64,000 bases of DNA. Source: Candidatus Moraniibacteriota bacterium. Lineage in GTDB: Bacteria > Patescibacteriota > Minisyncoccia > Moranbacterales > GCA-2747515. Below are positions 1,197 to 64,000 of this stretch, one piece after another. Below the pieces are notes generated by a model, which saw only the letters and a list, made by a program, of their open reading frames with translations, was not told the DNA's origin and did not search any database. The first letter of the stretch is position 1; each line of letters starts with the position of its first letter. The translations under genes and the position numbers were made by a program. The DNA lies in assembly GCA_942490825.1 (NCBI GenBank), contig CALNYG010000004.1:116888-180887 (forward strand). Direction: 5' to 3'.

Positions 1197-1474
1197 ATGT
1201 CATTTCGACTAGGACATAGCGGAACGGAGAAATCTCAAAACTTTGTATTTTTCTAAAACTTTAAGATTTATTAATTTTATACTGCTCCAATCAAAATGAT
1301 ATTGAAGATTTTCCTAAAAAATATAATTTTCTTATTATTTTGAACGAAGTAAAATTTTTGTTAAAAAATTTAATATAATGAAGAATCTACTAAAGATAAT
1401 ACCCGACTTTTAAATTACTAAATTATCAGAAAAACTTACTGATATTATTCACTCCGCTACGTTCAGAATGACAG
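1197..1474. repeat. composite or decayed hairpin-repeat block in the nrdA-nrdB spacer
   Basis: The left end ATGTCATTTCGACTAGGACATAGCGGAACGGAGAAATCTCAAAAC (1197-1241) is about 87% identical to the reverse complement of 9125-9168. The right end CGCTACGTTCAGAATGACAG (to 1474) is the reverse complement of the CTGTCATTCTGAACG module seen at 40686 and 51127. Internal remnants are ATTTTGAACGAAGTAAAAT (1337-1355) and AATGAAGAATC (1378-1388). Confidence 0.75.
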
Positions 1475-1558
1475 GTTGTGAACTATTTGAAAATTAAAAA
1501 TTCGTAAATTTAAAATTTTACAAACAGTAATACCAATCATTGTAATGCAACTCTTCTG

Positions 1559-4047: not shown

Positions 4048-4674
4048 TTATAATTTCCCAATTAAATCAACGCCTGGCTTCAAAGTCTTTTTTCCTGGGG
4101 TCCAACTCGCTGGACAAACCTGACCTTTATTCTTATCAACAAACTGAGCCGCTTGAATTTTTCTAATCAATTCATCAACATTTCGTCCAATACTATTATC
4201 ATTCACTTCATAAGCCTTCAAAATACCTTTTGGATCGATAATAAAAGTCCCTCGTAAAGACAATCCCTCATCATCAATGTAAACACCAAACATTTGAGAT
4301 AACTTCCCAGTCGGATCAGCCGCCATCGGGAATTTTATCTTTCCAACTGCCGGAGAACTGTCATGCCAAGCCTTGTGACAAAAAGCTGTATCTGTAGAAA
4401 CACTAACTACTTCTACACCTAGACTCTTTAATTTAGCATAAGCATTTGCCATATCTTCTAACTCAGTTGGACAAATAAACGTAAAATCCGCTGGATAGAA
4501 AAACAAAATTGTCCATTTATTATTCCTCCTAAAATTTGAAAGTTTAGTTTTTTTAATTTTATTAGCATGATAAACTTCAAATTCACACTCTGGAACTTTT
4601 CTACCAATCACAGGCAGTTCATTTATTGAAAAATCTGAAAAATACATTTCGTCTTCCATTATTTCTTTTGTCAT
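4048..4674 (-). CDS. 2-Cys peroxiredoxin (AhpC/Prx1 family)
   Basis: Peroxidatic Cys motif FFYPADFTFICPTE and resolving Cys motif GQVCPASW. Confidence 0.9.
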   Translation of the reverse strand: MTKEIMEDEMYFSDFSINELPVIGRKVPECEFEVYHANKIKKTKLSNFRRNNKWTILFFYPADFTFICPTELEDMANAYAKLKSLGVEVVSVSTDTAFCHKAWHDSSPAVGKIKFPMAADPTGKLSQMFGVYIDDEGLSLRGTFIIDPKGILKAYEVNDNSIGRNVDELIRKIQAAQFVDKNKGQVCPASWTPGKKTLKPGVDLIGKL

Positions 4675-5096
4675 AATTTTTATGTTAACTATTTAATTTT
4701 CTTTAAAAACTTTTGAACGTATTATATTAATTGAAAAAATTTTTAATCAGATTATAAAATAAAAAATGAAAAGATCTCAAAAAATTTAACATTAATTTAA
4801 AATTAATTTATTATCAAGTTTTCCAAATAACTTTTAGCTACTTACTATATTCGTCAATAAAGTAAAGACTAAATTTCAGTTAAATAAAACGTAAGCTTTA
4901 AAGAAAGATTTATTAATATTCTTTAATATTAATTTGTATAATGTTTAAAGTCAATACCACAACATATTGTGTTATGTGGGTAACTCACCTATGCCTGTTT
5001 TTCAAAAGAACTAAATAATCCCTAACGTAAAAAGTCAGCCTTGAAATCAAGTTCTTTTAACTTAACTTTTTGAAATTAAATTTCATAATAAAAAAT

Positions 5097-5128
5097 AAAA
5101 GACTTTCACAAAAATGCAAAAGTCTTTT
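5097..5128 (-). terminator. rho-independent terminator-like hairpin downstream of the surface-protein gene
   Basis: AAAAGACTTT / AAAGTCTTTT stem with flanking A/T runs, 20 nt beyond the stop at 5148. Confidence 0.55.
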
Positions 5129-14159: not shown

Positions 14160-17036
14160 CTAAACAACAATATTCAATAATCTTCCTTTCACAAAAATAA
14201 CTTTTCGAATTTCTTTACCTTCAATATGATTTTTAACCTTTTCACTTTCCAAAGCTTTTATCTTTACATCTTCTTCAGAAATTTCCGCTTCCACTTTAAT
14301 TTTATCGCGAAGTTTACCATTCACCTGAACGATTAATTCAATTACATCATCTTTAATCATTTCAGGATTAAATTCTGGCCATTCCGCCAAAAATATTGAT
14401 TTTTCATTTTTTAAAACTTCTTGCCAAATTTCTTCAGTCATATGCGGAGCAAACGGTGCAAGTAAAATCAAAAAGTTTTCCAAAGCAGCTTTCGGCAATT
14501 TTTCATGTTTTAACGCCTCATTCACAAAAATCATCATTTGAGAGATCGCTGTGTTAAAACTAAGCTTCTCAACATCTTCCGTAACTTTTTTAATAGTTTT
14601 ATGCAAAGCTGATTTAATTTCTTTCGTAACATCATCACACTTCCCCGCTTCACAATTAATCAATTCTTTCTCTGTACAAACTTTCCAAACTTTTTCTAGA
14701 AATCTATAAACTCCAACAATATTATCTTCATTCCAAACAACATCATCCTCAAGTGGTGCCGCAAACATCATATAACTTCGAACCGCATCCGCTCCAAATC
14801 TTTTCACCATTTCATTTGGATTAATCACATTTCCCTTTGACTTTGACATTTTCACACCCTCTTTATCTAAAACCATTCCTTGATGTCGTAACTTCACAAA
14901 TGGTTCATCAAAATCAATCAAGCCAATTTTTTTCATCGCTTTCACAAAAAATCTTGCATATAAAAGATGCATGTAAGTATGTTCCGCTCCGCCAATATAA
15001 ATATCTATCGGAAACCATTGTTTCAATTTTTCCGCTGAACAAAATTCGTTTTCGTTTTCTGTATCTGGATAACGTAAAAAATACCAAGCTGAATCCACAA
15101 AAGTATCCATCGTATCAACTTCTGGAGTCCAACCTTTTCCGAAGAGTTTTTCCACTCGCTCATGCAATTCTTTTGAGTTTTTCAACGGTGCTTCACCAGT
15201 CGGCACAAAATCTACATCTTCTGGCAAAGTCCATGGTAAATTTTCTTCACCAACAAATTTCGCCTCGCCCTCTGGTGAATAAACAATCGGAATCGGACAA
15301 CCCCAATATCTCTGTCGTGAAACAGACCAATCTCGTAATCGATAAGTTGAAGTCATTTCTCCACCAACAAATTCTGTGATTTTAGTTTTTGCTTCGTCTG
15401 AACTCATTCCGTCGAATTTTTCTGAATTAACTAAAATTCCTTTGTCTGAAAATATAATGTTATTAACAAGCTCATCCCACACAAATAAAAGACCTGGTGC
15501 TGTTAAATTATTTTTGATTTCGTCCTTATTCACCCAAACTATATCATGCTTTCTTTTTTCCTCCTCAATAATATCAATACATTCATCATTTTCTAATTCG
15601 AAATAAAAAGTTCTAAAATGAGCTAGCCTATTCACATTTTTTGGAACGTGAAAAAACTTCGCGTCAAGTTTACTTAATTCTTTAATTAGCTTTAAATTTT
15701 TATAGCCAGTCTCTTCTAGAACTTCCATTCTAGCTGCTTCTTCTGCTGTTTGTCCTTTTTCTATTCCGCCAGTAATAAATGTAGACCAATCAACTTTCTT
15801 CCACTTTAAAATAAGATATTTTTCTTCAGACCAATGCTTAACTATAGCTGTTATAGCATTTCTCTCAACAATTTCTTCATTATCACGAAAGGCATCATCT
15901 CCAGTATCTCTAGTAAAAATTGGTGCAACAACCTGCTTAACTTCTAAATCAAACTTCTTCGCAAACTCAAAATCCCTTTCATCATGTGCAGGTACCGCCA
16001 TAATTGCCCCAGTCCCATAACCCGCCAAAACATAATCCGCAATAAAAACAGGAATTGCCTCACCATTCGCAGGATTAATCGCTTTAATACCTTTCAATTC
16101 AACACCAGTTTTTTCTTTGCTTTCCATTCGATCAAGCTCAGATTTTTTTCTAGTTTCTTCTTGATATTTCTCAACCTCATCATAATTGGAAATTGAAAAT
16201 TGTAAATTGGAAATTAATTCATGTTCTGGAGCCAAAACCATATAAGTCACACCAAAAAGCGTATCCGGACGAGTCGTAAAAACCTCAATCTCCAAATTAC
16301 TATCATTTGAAACGCGATCAATCGACGCTTCTACTTTAAATTTAATTTTAGCACCCTCTGACTTTCCGATCCAAGCCTTTTGATTCTTTTTCGTATGTTC
16401 AGGCCAATCAACTTTATCCAAATCATCAATTAACTCATCCGCAAAATCCGTAATCTTAAAAAACCAACCTGGAACATCCCTCTGTTCAATTTCAGTTTTA
16501 CAACGCTCACATTTTCCACCTTCAACCTGTTCATTCGCAATTCCAGTATTACAACTCGAACACCAATTAATCATATCCGTTTTCTGAACAACTAAATCAT
16601 TCTCAAAAAATTTCCCAAACAAAAATTGCGTCCATTTATAATAAGAAGGATCCGAAGTATAAACCAAATGATCCAAATCATGCCCCAAACCAAGCATTCG
16701 CATCTGTTCCAAATAATTATCAGTATTAACTTTGGTTGTCTCCTTTGGATGAACGCCTGTCTTAATCGCATAATTTTCCGCAGGCAAACCGAAAGAATCA
16801 AATCCTTGTGGATGCAACACATTATATCCCTGCATTTTTTTGAATCGATAAATAATATCTGAAGCCGTGTAAGATTCGGTGTGTCCCATGTGCAAACCAT
16901 CCCCAGACGGATACGGAAACATATCCAAAACATAATAATTCTTTTTCTCAGAATTCTCCTCAACTTTATTCAAATCTTCTTCTCGCCACTTTTCCTGCCA
17001 CTTTTTTTCTATATTTTTGTGCGTATATTTTTCCAT
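14160..17036 (-). CDS. leuS: leucyl-tRNA synthetase with an inserted Nudix-like domain
   Basis: HIGH motif (GLHMGH), KMSKS, CP1 editing motifs TTRPDTLFG and GTGAIMAVPAHDERDFEFA, and YRLRDWSVSRQRYWGCPIP. It is 958 aa, longer than typical because of a roughly 140-aa insertion at residues ~385-530. Confidence 0.95.
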   Translation of the reverse strand: MEKYTHKNIEKKWQEKWREEDLNKVEENSEKKNYYVLDMFPYPSGDGLHMGHTESYTASDIIYRFKKMQGYNVLHPQGFDSFGLPAENYAIKTGVHPKETTKVNTDNYLEQMRMLGLGHDLDHLVYTSDPSYYKWTQFLFGKFFENDLVVQKTDMINWCSSCNTGIANEQVEGGKCERCKTEIEQRDVPGWFFKITDFADELIDDLDKVDWPEHTKKNQKAWIGKSEGAKIKFKVEASIDRVSNDSNLEIEVFTTRPDTLFGVTYMVLAPEHELISNLQFSISNYDEVEKYQEETRKKSELDRMESKEKTGVELKGIKAINPANGEAIPVFIADYVLAGYGTGAIMAVPAHDERDFEFAKKFDLEVKQVVAPIFTRDTGDDAFRDNEEIVERNAITAIVKHWSEEKYLILKWKKVDWSTFITGGIEKGQTAEEAARMEVLEETGYKNLKLIKELSKLDAKFFHVPKNVNRLAHFRTFYFELENDECIDIIEEEKRKHDIVWVNKDEIKNNLTAPGLLFVWDELVNNIIFSDKGILVNSEKFDGMSSDEAKTKITEFVGGEMTSTYRLRDWSVSRQRYWGCPIPIVYSPEGEAKFVGEENLPWTLPEDVDFVPTGEAPLKNSKELHERVEKLFGKGWTPEVDTMDTFVDSAWYFLRYPDTENENEFCSAEKLKQWFPIDIYIGGAEHTYMHLLYARFFVKAMKKIGLIDFDEPFVKLRHQGMVLDKEGVKMSKSKGNVINPNEMVKRFGADAVRSYMMFAAPLEDDVVWNEDNIVGVYRFLEKVWKVCTEKELINCEAGKCDDVTKEIKSALHKTIKKVTEDVEKLSFNTAISQMMIFVNEALKHEKLPKAALENFLILLAPFAPHMTEEIWQEVLKNEKSIFLAEWPEFNPEMIKDDVIELIVQVNGKLRDKIKVEAEISEEDVKIKALESEKVKNHIEGKEIRKVIFVKGRLLNIVV

Positions 17037-17126: not shown

Positions 17127-17151
17127 AAAGTGCTCGCCGCACGGGCTTTTT
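17127..17151 (+). repeat. GC-box repeat copy 1 (AAAGTGCTCGCCGCACGGGCTTTTT)
   Basis: Exact consensus copy, about 90 nt upstream of the leuS start. Confidence 0.9.
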
Positions 17152-18829: not shown

Positions 18830-18851
18830 AAAATAATTAAAATAAAATATT

Positions 18852-25066: not shown

Positions 25067-25088
25067 GTGCTCGCCGCATGGGCTTTTT
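25067..25088 (+). repeat. GC-box repeat copy 2
   Basis: GTGCTCGCCGCATGGGCTTTTT, with one C>T change that keeps a G.T pair. Confidence 0.9.
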
Positions 25089-28867: not shown

Positions 28868-28888
28868 GTGCTCGCCGCACGGGCTTTT
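28868..28888 (+). repeat. GC-box repeat copy 3
   Basis: GTGCTCGCCGCACGGGCTTTT. Confidence 0.9.
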
Positions 28889-32991: not shown

Positions 32992-33076
32992 AAAAATAGA
33001 TATTTAGATTATTAGACTTTTAGTGTTTTAATTTTTTTACTAACAAACCCATAAAAATTCGCATACGCTCCCAAAC

Positions 33077-33164
33077 ATGTCATTCCGGAAAATATATTTT
33101 CTTTTGTAGAAACGTCGATTTATCGCGTTTTATAGATAGAAAATAATTTATCCGGAATCTACAC
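33077..33164. repeat. ATGTCATT hairpin module (single)
   Basis: ATGTCATTCCGGAAAATATATTTTCT-[loop]-AGAAAATAATTTATCCGGAATCTACAC. Confidence 0.85.
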
Positions 33165-33205: not shown

Positions 33206-33226
33206 AAAGTGCTCGCCGCACAGGCT
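33206..33226 (+). repeat. GC-box repeat copy 4
   Basis: AAAGTGCTCGCCGCACAGGCT. It carries a G>A change in the stem and lies 25 nt beyond the stop of the GT4 gene at 33251. Confidence 0.85.
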
Positions 33227-35179: not shown

Positions 35180-35234
35180 ATTTTTTTTATTAATTATTAT
35201 TTAAATTATTTTAATTTACACAAGCTACCAAGAC

Positions 35235-35405
35235 ATGTCATTCCGGAAAATATATTTTCTTTTCGAACGAAGTGAGAAATTAGAAAATAATTTATCCGGA
35301 ATCTATACCTAAAATTTTTTATATCTTAAAGTGTAGATTCCGGATAAACTAATTTGTATTCAATCGCTATCGCTCTTGAACAAATTATGTCTTCCGGAAT
35401 GACAT
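35235..35405. repeat. 171-bp double-hairpin element with ATGTCATT / AATGACAT termini
   Basis: Left hairpin at 35235-35307 (ATTCCGGAAAATATATTTTCT...AGAAAATAATTTATCCGGAAT). Right hairpin at 35331-35405 (ATTCCGGATAAACTAATTTGT...ACAAATTATGTCTTCCGGAAT). The outer termini are inverted repeats. Confidence 0.9.
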
Positions 35406-36863: not shown

Positions 36864-36939
36864 AAAAAACTTTAACAAAATTATTTTTCCTATCTCTAAA
36901 ATACTAAAAATATATACCCCTCTAAATTTCACAGGCCAT

Positions 36940-37279
36940 CAAAAGATAATCTATAAGCTGGATTCTGTCGAGAATAGTGATTTACCTTGTTTATATGTTG
37001 CCATATAAATCCTCGCGACTCACCCCACACCCACAATTTAAATATAAATTATGGGTGTGGGGTACGGTCTTGCACTTAAGTAAGGATTTAGCCGTTTCAC
37101 CTTCCATGTTTCCACAGAAGCTTATCCCGAAGGATAGATCAGAGCTTTCGCGCCAATCCGTCTCTGCTCGCACCTCATGGGTCACCCCAGACGGGAGTTA
37201 CCCGCTACCTCGCTGTCTTCGTAAAAAAAAGACAAGTGTCCAGACTTTCCTCTCCGTAGAGCCACTATTTAATCATCTT
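36940..37279 (-). ncRNA. rnpB: RNase P RNA, bacterial type A
   Basis: The minus strand carries GGAGAGGAAAGTCTGGACAC (CR-I), GGAAGGTGAAACGGC and GACAGAATCCAGCTTAT (CR-V). P1 pairs AGAUGAUU with GAUUAUCU. The region is a local GC-rich island, and the ends are approximate. Confidence 0.85.
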
Positions 37280-37536
37280 TTAATGGACAATATTATTTAG
37301 AGTATTATTTTTAACTGTGGTTATTATACAATAAATTTAACGAAAAATAAAGGAAAAGTTGATTGACTTTTTAATCTCTCTATTGAGTTGAATACAATAT
37401 TTTAAAAGTTCAGATTTAATTTTAAAATTGAAAAAAAATATAAATCATTTAATTTATAAAAAATTTTCTATAAAATTTCTAGTCTACCAACTCTTTATTC
37501 TTATTAATGTTGCTGAAAAGCTGGTATTTAAAAAGT

Positions 37537-40617: not shown

Positions 40618-40780
40618 AAAGTGCTCGCCGCACGGGCTTTTCTGAACAAGGGGTCATGACCCCTTGTTCAGATTCTAAAAATTTTCTGTCATTCTGAACG
40701 GATTTATTTTTTTCAGAAAAAATATAGTAGTGAAGTCTGCCTATCGGCAGATAGGAATCCCCCACAGAGAATCACAAAAC
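40618..40780 (+). repeat. composite repeat with GC-box copy 5, a 32-nt perfect palindrome, a GTCATTCTGAACG hairpin module and a nested 20-nt mini-palindrome
   Basis: GC-box at 40618-40641. The palindrome TCTGAACAAGGGGTCA|TGACCCCTTGTTCAGA is at 40641-40672. CTGTCATTCTGAACG...GTGAAG[TCTGCCTATCGGCAGATAGG]AATCCCCC has the bracketed insert at 40736-40755. The whole block is colinear with 51077-51201. Confidence 0.9.
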
Positions 40781-40812
40781 AATATTTTTAAAAAACTGAA
40801 AATACTAAAATC

Positions 40813-40841
40813 AAAAAAGCCGACCAAAAGGTCGGCTTTTT
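40813..40841. terminator. bidirectional rho-independent terminator
   Basis: AAAAAAGCCGACC-AAAA-GGTCGGCTTTTT between the convergent ABC and KH genes. Confidence 0.75.
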
Positions 40842-40862
40842 ATCTTTGAAAAATATCAAATA

Positions 40863-41195
40863 CTAGATTTGAATATCATCAACTACTTCACTAAGAGTTT
40901 TCTTCTCACCATCTCTATTTTCTCGACGAGCTGGTCTTTCAGATCCCTCTGGTTCATCAATCTTCAAGTTAACACGAGCGTTGTTTCGAGCACCTACTAC
41001 ACGTAGTAATGTTCGCAAAGCCTTAGCTGTGCTTCCCTCACGACCAATAACCATTCCCATATCAGCTGCGTTTACACCAAGAGTTATCAAAACACCCATT
41101 TCATCAACTGTACGATCAACTTTCACATCGTCAGGATTATCCACTAGCATTTTTACTACCTCTTCGATAAACTTTGCATCTTGTTCTTGTTCCAT
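40863..41195 (-). CDS. KH-domain RNA-binding protein (KhpA/YlqC-like) with a C-terminal extension
   Basis: MVIGREGSTAKALRTLLRVVG (GxxG KH core); 110 aa. Confidence 0.8.
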   Translation of the reverse strand: MEQEQDAKFIEEVVKMLVDNPDDVKVDRTVDEMGVLITLGVNAADMGMVIGREGSTAKALRTLLRVVGARNNARVNLKIDEPEGSERPARRENRDGEKKTLSEVVDDIQI

Positions 41196-51076: not shown

Positions 51077-51201
51077 AAAGTGCTCGCCGCACGGGCTTTT
51101 TAGATTTTATTTTTTCTAAAAGTTTTCTGTCATTCTGAACGCATTTATTTTTTATTTAAAAAATAAAGGAGTGAAGAATCCCCCAAAGAAAATCATAAAA
51201 C
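51077..51201 (+). repeat. composite repeat with GC-box copy 6 and a GTCATTCTGAACG hairpin module
   Basis: AAAGTGCTCGCCGCACGGGCTTTTT ... CTGTCATTCTGAACG ... GAGTGAAGAATCCCCCAAAGAAAATCATAAAAC. It is colinear with 40618-40780 but lacks both palindromic inserts. It sits between CIRCE and the dnaJ start. Confidence 0.9.
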
Positions 51202-51253: not shown

Positions 51254-51280
51254 TTAGCAATCACTTGACTTGAGTGCTAA
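51254..51280. promoter_or_regulatory. CIRCE element (HrcA operator)
   Basis: TTAGCAATC-N9-GAGTGCTAA versus the consensus TTAGCACTC-N9-GAGTGCTAA, about 206 nt upstream of the dnaJ ATG. Confidence 0.8.
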
Positions 51281-54148: not shown

Positions 54149-54651
54149 ATAAAAAGATTAGAAAATAATGATGATGCAAATATAGACAATAAAACCAGTA
54201 TAATTCCTGAAATAACTGAGCCAATTGCTAAAAGTGGAATCGCCTTTTTGAAAGGAATATCGAAAATACTAGCCGCCACTGCTCCAGTTACAATCCCTGT
54301 AAATGGCAACGGAATTGCCACAAAAGCTATCAAAGCGAAAGCTCCCCACTTTTCAAATTTATCAATATTTTTTGTTTGAATTCGGTGAATATATTTTTTC
54401 CAAATTTTATTTAACCATTCAATTTTCTTTAGGAAAAAATCGAATATATTATCTACAAAAACAAACGTTAAAATCCCCACTAAAACATTACCTAAAATTG
54501 AGTAGATAAAGGCTGCAAATGGATTCATTTCATATCCTATGATTGCTACAGGAATTGAAGCTCTTATTTCTGTAATTGGTATCATTGCGAGTAGGAATGT
54601 TGCCCACTCATGCGACAAATTTGAAACTGATTCTATAATTATTTCTTTCAT
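54145..54651 (-). CDS. small multidrug-export-like membrane protein (COG2426/Sm_multidrug_ex family)
   Basis: LAMIPITEIRASIPVAI pattern with 4-5 helices. It overlaps tpiA by 4 nt. Confidence 0.45.
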   Translation of the reverse strand: MKEIIIESVSNLSHEWATFLLAMIPITEIRASIPVAIIGYEMNPFAAFIYSILGNVLVGILTFVFVDNIFDFFLKKIEWLNKIWKKYIHRIQTKNIDKFEKWGAFALIAFVAIPLPFTGIVTGAVAASIFDIPFKKAIPLLAIGSVISGIILVLLSIFASSLFSNLFI

Positions 54652-54667
54652 TTATTTATTTAAAAAA

Positions 54668-55102
54668 TTAAAATCCAAAATCACTATAAAAGCTATCTTT
54701 ACGTATATTTTCAAGAGCCTGTTTAATAAAAGGAATTGTATTTTCTGGCAAGTCATCCAAATCAAACCAACTAACATCATCACACTTATTAGACTCTGCA
54801 ACTTTCGGTTCGCCTTTCCATTTTTTTGCCATAAAAAATACATCGATTCTATTACCATTTTGTTGTCTATGTAAAACATGTACTGCATCAAGACTATCTG
54901 AACATAAATCAATATCAACCTCTTCTTTAGCTTCCCTAATCATTGCATCTTTGTACGCCTCACCATCATCAACATGACCGCCGACCAAACTATAATTTCC
55001 ATCTTCATAACCAGTATTGTATCTTCGCAATAAAAGAATTTTATTATCTTTAACTAAGACAAGATAAATTCCTGGAGTTATTTTTAATCTCTCTTTAGAC
55101 AT
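54668..55102 (-). CDS. Nudix hydrolase (paralog A1)
   Basis: Canonical Nudix box GGHVDDGEAYKDAMIREAKEEVDI. About 85% aa identity to the ORF at 61372-61806. Confidence 0.88.
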   Translation of the reverse strand: MSKERLKITPGIYLVLVKDNKILLLRRYNTGYEDGNYSLVGGHVDDGEAYKDAMIREAKEEVDIDLCSDSLDAVHVLHRQQNGNRIDVFFMAKKWKGEPKVAESNKCDDVSWFDLDDLPENTIPFIKQALENIRKDSFYSDFGF

Positions 55103-57374: not shown

Positions 57375-57593
57375 ATATCATTCCGGAAAATATATTTTCT
57401 CCTTCAGAGCGTAGCGATGAAATAGAAAATAATTTATCCGGAATCTAGAAAACTTTAAGATTATAAATAAACTTTAATTTTTTATTTTTCTCTTGTAATT
57501 TCTAAATACCGGATAGACGAACCTGTCTGCCGAACAGGCAGGTTTAAATCAATCGCTACGCTCTTGAATAAATTCTGTCTTCCGGCATGACAT
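57375..57593. repeat. 219-bp double-hairpin element with ATATCATT / CATGACAT termini and a nested mini-palindrome
   Basis: Same architecture as 35235-35405. The right hairpin additionally contains ACCTGTCTGCCGAACAGGCAGGT (57521-57543), which is absent from the 35331-35405 copy. Confidence 0.9.
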
Positions 57594-60885: not shown

Positions 60886-61335
60886 TTAATTCCAACCAAA
60901 TTCACTGTAAAAATTATCATTCTTAATATTTTCAAGAACCTGAAGAACCTCTGGAGCAATATTTTCTGGTAAACTATTCAAGTCAAACCATGATAAATCA
61001 TCACATTTCTCTGGTTCCATGTTTTTAATCTCACCATCCCATTTTTCACTCACAAAAAATGCACTGACTCTTTCATTATTCTGAGTGATCCCAAAATCTC
61101 CATGTATCACATGAGCTACTTTTAAATTTTTTGATTCTAAATCAACTCCTATCTCTTCCTTTGCTTCCCTAATTACACATCGAGTAAAACTTTCTCCGAC
61201 TTTAACGTGTCCAGAAGGTAATGAATATTTGCCATTACAATACTTTTTATTATAACGTCTCGACATTAATACTTTCTTATCTTTTAATAAAATCAGATAT
61301 GACGCTGGAATTATTTTATGTCTTTCTTTTTTCAT
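60886..61335 (-). CDS. Nudix hydrolase (paralog B)
   Basis: Nudix box SGHVKVGESFTRCVIREAKEEIGV. About 50% identity to paralogs A1 and A2. Confidence 0.85.
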   Translation of the reverse strand: MKKERHKIIPASYLILLKDKKVLMSRRYNKKYCNGKYSLPSGHVKVGESFTRCVIREAKEEIGVDLESKNLKVAHVIHGDFGITQNNERVSAFFVSEKWDGEIKNMEPEKCDDLSWFDLNSLPENIAPEVLQVLENIKNDNFYSEFGWN

Positions 61336-61371
61336 ATTTTTTAAATTTAATTATTTTTATAAGTTCAAAAC

Positions 61372-61806
61372 TTAAAATCCAAAATCACTATAAAAAACTT
61401 CTTTCTTTATATTTTTAAGAGCTTGTTTTATAAAAGGAATTGTATTATCAGGTAAATTATCCATATCAAACCAACTAACATCATCACATTTTTCAGATTC
61501 TGCAACTCTAGGCTCACCAGTCCAATCATTTGCCATAAAAAATACATCGATTCTATTACCACTTTGTTGCCTATGCAATACATGCACAGCATTTAAATCT
61601 GCTGAATTTATTTCTATATCAGCTTCCTCTTTAGCTTCTCTAATCATCGCATCCTTATAAGCTTCACCATCATCAACATGTCCACCTACTAAACTATAAT
61701 TACCATCTTCGTATCCAGTATTATATCTTCTAAGTAAGAGAATTTTATTATCTTTTATTAAAACAAGATAAATTCCCGGAATAATTTTTAATCTTTCTTT
61801 AGACAT
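61372..61806 (-). CDS. Nudix hydrolase (paralog A2)
   Basis: GGHVDDGEAYKDAMIREAKEEADI. About 85% aa identity to 54668-55102. Confidence 0.88.
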   Translation of the reverse strand: MSKERLKIIPGIYLVLIKDNKILLLRRYNTGYEDGNYSLVGGHVDDGEAYKDAMIREAKEEADIEINSADLNAVHVLHRQQSGNRIDVFFMANDWTGEPRVAESEKCDDVSWFDMDNLPDNTIPFIKQALKNIKKEVFYSDFGF

Positions 61807-63696: not shown

Positions 63697-63737
63697 GTGC
63701 CTGTCTGCCGATAGGCAGGCTCGCCGCACGAGTTTTT
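63697..63737 (+). repeat. GC-box repeat copy 7, interrupted by a 20-nt mini-palindrome
   Basis: GTGC[CTGTCTGCCGATAGGCAGGC]TCGCCGCACGAGTTTTT, with the bracketed insert at 63701-63720. Confidence 0.9.
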
Positions 63738-63850
63738 AAACTTAAGATTTTTATAATTTATATTTCGTTTACTAAATTTAAAAGTTTAATTACTTTATTA
63801 TAAACTCCACAATAGATATCGCATTGTAAGCTTACACTTTTTATAATTTC

Positions 63851-64000
63851 ATGTCATTCCGGAAGTTATAATTTTTTCAAGAGCGTAGCGATTGAATAAA
63901 AATTAATCTATCCGGAATCTCAACAAGCTTTCCTGACACTTAAAGAGATTCTGGAAAATAATTTTTCCGTTCTGCTACAAAATTATTTTCTGGAATAACA
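63851..64000. repeat. double-hairpin ATGTCATT element, right end cut by the window edge
   Basis: Left hairpin at 63851-63922 (ATGTCATTCCGGAAGTTATAATTTTT...AAAAATTAATCTATCCGGAAT). Right hairpin at 63946-64000 (ATTCTGGAAAATAATTTT...AAAATTATTTTCTGGAAT). Confidence 0.85.

Follow-up and report, generated by a model that had tools for sequence, protein, structure and literature searches.

We describe here a short GC-rich intergenic repeat, the GC-box, in a 64,000-nt stretch of the genome of Candidatus Moraniibacteriota bacterium (GenBank assembly GCA_942490825.1, contig CALNYG010000004.1, positions 116,888 to 180,887; the whole of this stretch is referred to as the window). With a probability that we put at about one half, the GC-box serves as a non-REP anchor within a mosaic of repetitive extragenic palindromic (REP) elements and REP-associated tyrosine transposases (RAYTs) similar to the bacterial interspersed mosaic elements (BIMEs), with a strand bias of the Y1-transposase type that has been sharpened by selection.

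The repeat unit and its distribution

The window has a GC content of about 30%. Its plus strand is C-rich throughout (GC skew from -0.03 to -0.43), and its genes lie mostly on the minus strand. A scan at up to three mismatches found the 15-nt core GCTCGCCGCACGGGC at positions 17132, 25069, 28870, 33211, 40623, 51082 and 63719. These seven matches exhibit at most two mismatches each, are all on the plus strand and all fall between long open reading frames (ORFs), in agreement with the first-pass annotation, a reading of the letters alone that had listed seven co-oriented intergenic copies. Only 0.02 copies are expected from dinucleotide-preserving shuffles, and none of 100 shuffles gave seven. 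The full 25-mer, again at up to three mismatches, matched four times (17127, 25064, 40618 and 51077), always on the plus strand, with an expectation of 0.00. A profile of 87 copies delimits the conserved unit to 21 nt, GTGCTCGCCGCACGGGCTTTT, every position of which is 87–100% conserved. An A-rich tract precedes this unit (positions -14 to -5), and further to the left no position is conserved; the box is thus laid out as A-tract, GC hairpin and T-run. Among 97 matches at up to three mismatches, 76 are perfect across the 15-nt core.

The seven window copies, all on the plus strand, occupy different gene contexts. Copy 1 (17130..17150), a perfect 21-mer, is a singleton to which no module is attached; two divergent sigma70-like promoters enclose it in the divergent spacer upstream of leuS, 95 nt from the start. 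Copy 2 (25067..25087) is located upstream of uvrA, 52 nt from the start, and 107 nt past the stop of a TPR gene, and its C->T change at core position 11 preserves the pairing through G.T. Copy 3 (28868..28888), again perfect, is found 52 nt upstream of an Lnb_N/DUF4105 gene. In copy 4 (33209..33225), 25 nt past the stop of a glycosyltransferase gene, a G->A change breaks a C-G pair and the T-run is replaced by TATGATACAT; the sister genome described below has no copy at the matching site. Copy 5 (40621..40641), perfect, is located in a convergent spacer; it is in sense orientation with the ABC exporter gene, which is on the lagging strand and ends 30 nt before the box. Copy 6 (51080..51100), perfect, is antisense within the 5' untranslated region (5'UTR) of dnaJ, 33 nt upstream of the ATG. 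Copy 7 (63697..63738), about 123 nt upstream of a gene for a 103-aa membrane protein, is degenerate and split: GTGC (63697-63700) is separated from GCTCGCCGCACGAGT (63719-63733) by an 18-nt hairpin insert (63701-63718), and a G->A change turns the T.G pair into T-A. The pairing changes in copies 2, 4 and 7 and the interruption of copy 7 had been read correctly in the first pass, and Pfam confirmed the neighbouring genes that it had named (leuS, uvrA, the DUF4105 gene, the ABC exporter and dnaJ). The first pass had placed most boxes 30-125 nt upstream of minus-strand start codons and one right after the plus-strand ABC exporter.

Species representatives of GTDB were scanned with GTGCTCGCCGCACGGGCTTT, which yielded at least 60 loci. 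Among the matches listed, about 50 loci belong to a single metagenome-assembled genome (MAG), Candidatus Moraniibacteriota bacterium RS_12_31 (JAGLWU01); the other listed matches are one contig of the same study and single chance matches in GC-rich genomes. The coding DNA of this MAG is about 77-91% identical to that of the window, and it therefore represents a sister species. The loci fetched from it (fetched loci are designated by L and a number) contain at least 85 unique GC-box copies. Save for a few doubtful ORF calls, the copies of window and MAG lie outside long ORFs. A scan of JGI metagenomes gave three matches, all of them chance matches in contigs of 64-68% GC, a scan of viral contigs gave no GC-box match, and a BLAST search with the whole mosaic against phages and plasmids found nothing similar. 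The GC-box family is restricted to a narrow clade of Moranbacteria, within the Patescibacteria or candidate phyla radiation (CPR). Together with the dnaJ series presented below, these scans speak against a conserved promoter or RNA common to distant taxa, which the first-pass annotation had considered. One contig labelled as a Methylococcales MAG (RS_11_22; JAGLUC010000165.1, loci L037 and L058) carries the GC-box with two of the modules described in the next section, M4 and M5; this contig, which stems from the same study, was probably mis-binned and belongs to Moranbacteria.

Associated modules and RAYT genes

The GC-box is accompanied by several repeat modules sharing one orientation. Modules M2, M3 and M4 start directly after the T-run of the box, and M5 and M6 lie further out; M4 is present after only some box copies. 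M3, GGGTTTGCCAnTGGCAAACCCCTAC, is a REP hairpin with a GT[AG]G guide and, judged by its sequence, has the make-up of a textbook REP of the GTAG type. Some 20 copies of M3 are directly adjacent to a GC-box. On the leading-strand sequence, i.e. the lagging-strand template, the order reads 5'-REP(GT[AG]G-hairpin)-AAAA-GCCCGTGCGGCGAGCAC-3'. The box thus recurs beside REP units in a fixed order and orientation, as is characteristic of a BIME-like mosaic. At orthologous sites, the modules vary between species while the box is constant. M2, for instance, is present or absent between species at such sites; in the window this perfect palindrome, CTGAACAAGGGGTCATGACCCCTTGTTCAG, is found at 40642..40671, directly after the T-run of copy 5. 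The single M3 match in the window, at position 204, lies inside a gene and was discarded as a chance match.

Pairing analysis identified M5 as an extended hairpin at 40686..40780 (plus strand), running from TCATTCTGA through a variable stem to GTGAAGAAT and ending with CCCCCAC (GTGGGGG on the minus strand). This copy holds a nested 20-nt hairpin (40736-40755). Nine of the 18 pairs of M5 exhibit compensatory changes, and on the minus strand 16 of 37 copies start with GT[AG]GGGG. From these features M5 looks like a second REP family. Its hairpin of about 65 nt combines an invariant base, made up of AUUCU/AGAAU and a tandem GA/GA internal loop, with a variable distal stem, and it is without a match in Rfam. 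A further M5 occurs in the window at about 1330-1475 (minus strand), and 37 copies were collected from related loci.

M6 is a palindromic element of about 85 nt, CATGTCATTCCGGAAAATATA...TTTATCCGGAATCT, resembling a miniature inverted-repeat transposable element. Its window copies (33076-33160, 35234-35304, 35335-35404 on the minus strand, 57376-57446 and 63850-63920) are mostly on the plus strand and are often independent of the GC-box; the copy at 33076 contains a GTAG-type hairpin in its loop. A GC-rich mini-hairpin of 18-36 nt, CTGCC-N3-5-GGCAG, is in turn nested in other repeats (window 63701-63718, 40736-40755 and about 57527; also in L014 and L024). In three independent GC-box copies, window copy 7 and those of L014 and L024, it occupies the same spot between GTGC and GCTCG, a placement which suggests a site-specific insertion process.

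The MAG contains a 186-aa ORF (L054:4471-5031, minus strand) whose PF01797 match of 26.8 bits exceeds the cut-off of 23. The protein exhibits the HIH and YYEH motifs and a weak similarity to the TnpA-REP structure PDB 4er8, and its homologs are labelled 'REP element-mobilizing transposase RayT' by JGI. A tblastn search with the IS608 TnpA, an IS200 and the E. coli RayT sequence as queries detected no Y1 transposase other than this one. No RAYT was found within the 64-kb window. However, a homolog of the MAG protein (P0127), near-identical in its N- and C-terminal regions and 57% identical overall, very probably lies on the window's own contig, outside the window. Both genomes appear to encode a RAYT, a Y1 transposase of the histidine-hydrophobe-histidine (HUH) type. 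Three RAYT genes (that of L054, L073:1748-2341 and L074:348-935) carry GTAGGGG...CCCCTAC REP hairpins in-frame in their own coding sequence, where they fall in the variable middle of the protein (e.g. NVGICQWQTPT). A remnant copy of the MAG RAYT is found at L052:1211-1285.

Orientation and gene context

The replication strand was inferred from the GC skew of 8-kb loci, corrected for coding strand, and not from a mapped origin; in the window the skew separates into a sense-strand part of about +0.175 and a replication part of about 0.15. In window and MAG together, the strand inferred to be lagging, which is C-rich, carries 72 copies and its counterpart 9, with 11 ambiguous (72:9, p=2e-13). The co-orientation noticed in the window thus held in a second genome. 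In convergent and divergent spacers the ratio of lagging to leading is 17:4 (p=0.007). Flipping a box in such spacers leaves its relation to transcription unchanged. In spacers between tandem genes, 49 copies are antisense and 5 sense. Tandem pairs of lagging-strand genes exhibit a roughly even split (2-5 against 3), although the numbers are small. The other modules share the bias (19:0 for the M5b pattern). As many as 89% of the box copies are on the strand where head-on transcripts would be terminated. The bias in orientation is genuine and is made up of a replication and a transcription component.

For 92 copies the flanking genes were viewed. In the written orientation of the box, the left and right genes are (-,-) in 49 cases, (+,-) in 14, (-,+) in 9 and (+,+) in 5. 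Where the gene on the 5' side is on the opposite strand (65 of the 85 copies with a called 5'-side gene), the box lies 21-250 nt, typically about 80 nt, upstream of its start. The other 20 copies sit sense-downstream of that gene, and 12 of them are within 35 nt of its stop codon; sense copies behind stops are 6-35 nt away. In both arrangements the T-run points away from the nearest gene, and 90% of the copies face at least one gene 3' end. Among spacers of at least 60 nt, 50 of 154 tandem, 11 of 37 convergent and 8 of 44 divergent ones are occupied. The occupancy is similar across spacer types, and therefore as expected of a dispersed repeat. An mRNA terminator should be missing from divergent spacers and a promoter element from convergent ones; the box occurs in both.

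The dnaJ locus was compared in relatives sampled as a graded series of DnaJ homologs (BLASTP identities). An identical 17-nt core is found 33-50 nt upstream of the dnaJ ATG at 95%, 89%, 84% and 82% DnaJ identity (L071, L064, L067 and L068, respectively), and the GC-box is absent upstream of dnaJ at 73% (L070) and 72% (L069). An operator, TTAGCACTC-N9-GAnTGCTAA, with an overlapping promoter is common to the window, L064, L067, L068, L069, L070 and L071. In the window it lies at 51254..51280 on the minus strand (TTAGCACTC-N9-GATTGCTAA), according to the alignment of the seven genomes. We take it, from the published consensus, to be the HrcA operator CIRCE (controlling inverted repeat of chaperone expression); a reading of the 51254-51280 hairpin as a terminator was given up in favor of this one. 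In the box-bearing genomes M5 and the GC-box are placed between operator and ATG, with M2 in addition in the MAG; the window M5, recognized by module comparison, is at 51127..51201 (plus strand). In the box-free genomes the distance from operator to ATG is about 75 nt (L070) and about 110 nt (L069), and the dnaJ leader of the window is about 215 nt. In the GC-box clade, repeat insertions have thus extended the dnaJ 5'UTR, which measures about 75-110 nt in the box-free genomes, to about 215 nt. The CIRCE promoter lies outside the block of M5 and GC-box, and the block is therefore transcribed, as reverse complement, in the dnaJ 5'UTR. As transcribed, the dnaJ box should not be able to act as an efficient terminator, its clean UUUU orientation being the antisense one. 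Such an antisense box in a 5'UTR fits selection against sense copies inside transcription units.

The sequence of the dnaJ UTR near the box is about 60% identical in the alignment, as estimated by eye. The internal hairpin of M5 at this locus is wholly different between orthologous copies yet self-complementary in each, and its variants match subfamilies found elsewhere in the genome; the copies at these sites have therefore been replaced, i.e. they have undergone concerted evolution. In one case synteny breaks off precisely at a box. When the dnaJ box (51080-51100) is compared with L021:1171 and L040:7449, its flanking genes are on different MAG contigs, with the homology of each ending at the GC-box. 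This indicates that either a rearrangement or a break in the assembly coincides with the repeat.

Alternative explanations and known systems

In the mechanism that we propose, the box would be an invariant 21-nt core serving as the gene-proximal anchor, on the T-run side of which modules M2-M6 accumulate. A RAYT-type Y1 (HUH) enzyme would serve M3 and about half of the M5 copies. The mosaic would spread and turn over by way of single-stranded DNA of the lagging-strand template, in the manner of Y1 enzymes. The leading-strand sequence would then contain the guide strand of the REPs and the box complement, which would create the replication bias. Transcripts of the box in its written orientation would form a short GC hairpin with UUUU after it and so act as a weak polar terminator. 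Copies in sense would therefore survive only directly behind stops, and antisense copies would be tolerated in spacers and even in 5'UTRs, which would sharpen the gene-linked bias. The direction of the box is thus probably set by replication-strand bias together with selection against the terminator-like orientation. The box is not itself a REP; its invariance across species suggests sequence-specific recognition by a putative protein that reads the sequence rather than the hairpin.

Several observations weigh against this proposal. According to the published definition, a REP has a guide tetranucleotide, GTAG or GTGG, on the 5' side of the hairpin foot at a distance of 0-2 nt, a basal stem of 7-20 fully paired nt and a loop of 2-5 nt, and its copies flank the cognate RAYT gene; REP families have mostly been described from Proteobacteria (PMC6006769). 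No GT[AG]G is present next to the hairpin on either strand of the box (GTGC on the plus strand, CCCGTGCGG on the minus strand), and the box stem of 4-5 bp, with folds between -4.6 and -7.7 kcal/mol over all calculations, falls short of the REP minimum of 7. A direct mobilisation of the box by RAYT is therefore unsupported. The L054 RAYT gene is flanked on both sides by M3 (GTAGGGGTTTGCCAnTGGCAAACCCCTAC, GTAG guide; 4424-4452 and 5079-5110), not by the GC-box, the nearest copy of which is 200 nt beyond the flanking M3, upstream of a GTPase gene that appears typA/BipA-like. The idea that the box is a REP-type mobile hairpin, raised in the first pass, retains only the many extragenic copies (7 in the 64-kb window, at least 85 in the MAG) in its favor. 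The related idea of mobilisation by a Y1 transposase fares better, as a Y1/RAYT system exists in the lineage and the box is joined to co-oriented GT[AG]G REP hairpins, but the RAYT is bordered by M3 rather than by the box. For the box alone we saw neither a target-site duplication nor a clean empty site, and no partner was found that would complete a left and right end pair of the IS200/IS605 type. The A-rich 5' flank also occurs at one empty site that is not fully clean (window 18830-18851, compared with L022), a hint that certain targets may be preferred. The effects of replication and of gene direction are moreover largely confounded and not fully separable, since about 85% of the genes run in the direction of replication. 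Finally, the 21-mer is identical at 5 of 5 comparable orthologous sites while 4-fold degenerate sites are only 50-57% identical between window and MAG (50% for the ABC exporter, 57% for dnaJ), where selfish repeats should decay or differ, and the conserved leuS singleton has no flanking homology to drive gene conversion.

Exact conservation across species fits better with a host-beneficial, sequence-specific signal than with a purely selfish model. Such a signal, a factor-dependent polar terminator or roadblock against antisense or head-on transcription, or else an oriented protein-binding site, is the main alternative, though a less likely one. Five window copies have counterparts at matching positions of the MAG, and the four that were aligned all exhibit an identical core between diverged or unalignable flanks. 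The ortholog of the leuS copy (L008:755-775) is identical over 26 nt, with diverged flanks and no repeat modules, and that of copy 3 (L051:3824) has the same core in unalignable flanks. The ortholog of copy 5 (L048:7579) is followed by a different module. The counterpart of copy 2 (L051:41), beside the 876-aa equivalent of the TPR gene, was assigned from gene size and synteny and not from an alignment. At orthologous sites the 21-mer is identical in at least five genomes, a figure to be set against the nearby UTR and the silent positions mentioned above. The two bases left unpaired in both alternative hairpins of the box are as invariant as the stem bases, the T-run is always directed away from the nearest gene, and the great majority of copies are placed to terminate head-on transcripts. 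Of the 13 convergent spacers that could be classified, 11 have the box on the lagging strand, where it closely follows the stop of the lagging-strand gene.

On the other hand, no candidate factor was found, the hairpin is weak, and only 1 of 4 lagging-strand transcription units in the window carries a box. Some copies have clearly decayed, among them L071:347, window copies 4 and 7 and, in L021, a degenerate box that lies upstream of CIRCE. Comparison of sister-genome spacers, which the first-pass annotation had recommended, revealed gains and losses of sites, with mosaics found only in the MAG (L022:5856 and L051:4767) and a copy found only in the window (33209). The turnover of M5 at the same sites shows that concerted evolution is operating. 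We are somewhat more doubtful of a version in which the box, instead of being a passive repeat, is an oriented and sequence-specific chromosomal signal under purifying selection across species. It would preferably be a factor-dependent polar stop for head-on or antisense transcription at the gene boundaries of a very AT-rich CPR genome, or else a recognition or nick site of an HUH enzyme that organises the nearby REP arrays; REP modules would then dock at it safely.

An ordinary Rho-independent terminator, possibly bidirectional (GCUCG/CGGGC with UUUU on the plus strand, GUGC/GCAC with a U-rich tract on the minus strand) and multiplied by duplication, appears unlikely. The terminator-like hairpin and T-run recognized in the first pass are present in form: the layout of A-tract, GC hairpin and T-run is that of a terminator, a consensus terminator scan marked the box on the plus strand, and sense copies closely follow stops, with most copies facing a gene 3' end. 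Their stability is another matter. The folds reach -6.0 to -7.7 kcal/mol on the plus strand and -5.7 to -5.8 kcal/mol on the minus strand (about -3 kcal/mol with DNA parameters), with stems of at most 5 bp including a G.U pair and 4 bp, respectively. Their z-scores of -0.2 to -1.0 are no better than those of shuffles. By comparison, the folded part (40806-40837) of a canonical terminator at 40806-40841 in the window has -19.1 kcal/mol (z -7.7), and other terminator-like hairpins after window genes exhibit 10-15 bp stems. An explanation driven by structure was dropped because hairpin stability, as RNA and as DNA and on both strands, does not surpass that of shuffles. No compensatory pairs were found among the GC-box variants compared, which are mostly G->A on the written strand (21, against 4 C->T); the pattern is one of mutational decay, not of covariation. 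The presence of 8-9 copies in divergent spacers, the antisense orientation of 49 of 54 copies in tandem context, the placement of the dnaJ copy between promoter and ATG and the invariant loop all argue in the same direction. A search of the window with Rfam 15 gave no convincing match at any GC-box. The only matches with E-values up to 5 that overlap a box are sub-threshold sRNA matches in the 40636-40904 spacer, centred on the canonical terminator, of which MicX (40639-40852) and sRNA162 (40636-40807) touch the last bases of copy 5. No tRNA or tmRNA origin of the box was found, and the 64-kb window is without tRNA genes. Bacterial RNase P RNA class A (36938-37280, minus strand, 114 bits) was the sole Rfam family above its gathering score.

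A promoter-associated element of the 5'-side gene (an operator, an UP-like element or the -35 of an alternative sigma factor) defining a regulon is largely refuted and very improbable: the many copies near gene starts on their 5' side, and the uvrA and leuS boxes just upstream of sigma70-like -35 hexamers, would agree with it, but no -35/-10 occurs at a fixed spacing, with less than 0.3 bit beyond -14, distances to start codons are broad, 30% of convergent spacers are occupied, 20 copies follow stops, the dnaJ box is downstream of its promoter, and the functions of the flanking genes are unrelated. Equally improbable is an oriented replication or recombination signal (like Chi, Ter or the FtsK-orienting polar sequences, KOPS) or a DNA uptake sequence: despite the strand skew, maintained in symmetric contexts, and a density of about one per 9 kb, near that of E. 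coli KOPS, the motif is 21 nt long, strictly intergenic and physically tied to REP modules, whereas the known Chi and KOPS sites measure 5-8 nt and are found within genes as well, and uptake sequences are not known to be biased in orientation and have a density about 10 times higher.

Some further features of the window were noted. LeuS (14160-17036, minus strand) contains an inserted NUDIX domain (aa 416-508, PF00293) common to many Moranbacteria LeuS homologs; the 873-aa LeuS of the sister MAG has no NUDIX match among its precomputed Pfam domains. A 300-nt direct repeat with 80% identity links 54641-54940 and 61345-61644, and two tandem paralogous genes of about 145-149 aa (60886-61335 and 61372-61806) look NUDIX-hydrolase-like by eye only.

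The GC-box mosaic indicates that a streamlined CPR lineage of about 30% GC carries an elaborate, oriented repeat system, even in the 5'UTR of a heat-shock gene. A negligible hairpin combined with identity at orthologous sites in genomes saturated at silent positions is unusual for such repeats. If the box acts as a polar terminator or insulator, it would illustrate how tiny AT-rich genomes limit antisense and head-on transcription; if it is an HUH recognition site, it would illustrate how domesticated Y1 enzymes structure intergenic DNA. In practice, the motif is a sharp clade marker and a hotspot for rearrangement and for assembly and binning errors. Our literature search found no description of REP/RAYT systems in Patescibacteria.

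Among known systems, the closest are the BIMEs of E. coli, which combine REP hairpins (palindromic units, PU) and non-REP motifs with a TnpA-REP/RAYT. As in BIMEs, short modules form intergenic mosaics in a stereotyped order, located in transcribed spacers and UTRs, with GT[AG]G-guided REP hairpins, the GC-box behaving like an external non-REP motif and, it appears, one REP-flanked RAYT gene per REP family. In contrast to BIMEs, the modules are single and co-oriented instead of forming alternating inverted pairs (REP doublet forming hairpins, REPINs), the orientation bias with respect to replication and transcription is strong, and the host is a low-GC CPR bacterium. The accessory motif is also more conserved than the REPs, being identical across species, whereas REPs are described as species-specific (PMC6006769). 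The system further resembles IS200/IS605 elements and palindrome-associated transposable elements (PATEs) in its Y1 HUH enzyme and in its asymmetry, with subterminal hairpins and no terminal inverted repeats. The strand bias of IS200/IS605 elements follows the direction of replication (PMC6006769), as does the 72:9 ratio here and the 17:4 ratio in transcription-symmetric contexts. Unlike these elements, the GC-box has no recognisable pair of ends or cleavage tetranucleotide, and the single-copy, REP-flanked enzyme is a RAYT rather than an IS-borne TnpA. With intrinsic terminators the box shares the GC-rich stem-loop between an A-tract and a T-run and the location of some copies just past stops; it differs in its 4-5 bp stem of marginal energy and in its approximately 100 copies, identical even in the loop, mostly antisense and in one case within a 5'UTR.

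Yeast mitochondrial GC clusters are short GC-rich elements in AT-rich intergenic DNA that form families, are nested in one another and vary in presence among relatives. The GC-box resembles them in those traits, a resemblance only, since they belong to another domain of life and, as far as we know, have neither a link to Y1 enzymes nor a reported strict replication strand bias. The GC-box mosaic is a new family of the known REP/BIME type of intergenic repeats, set apart by its CPR host, its unusually strict orientation and its invariance.

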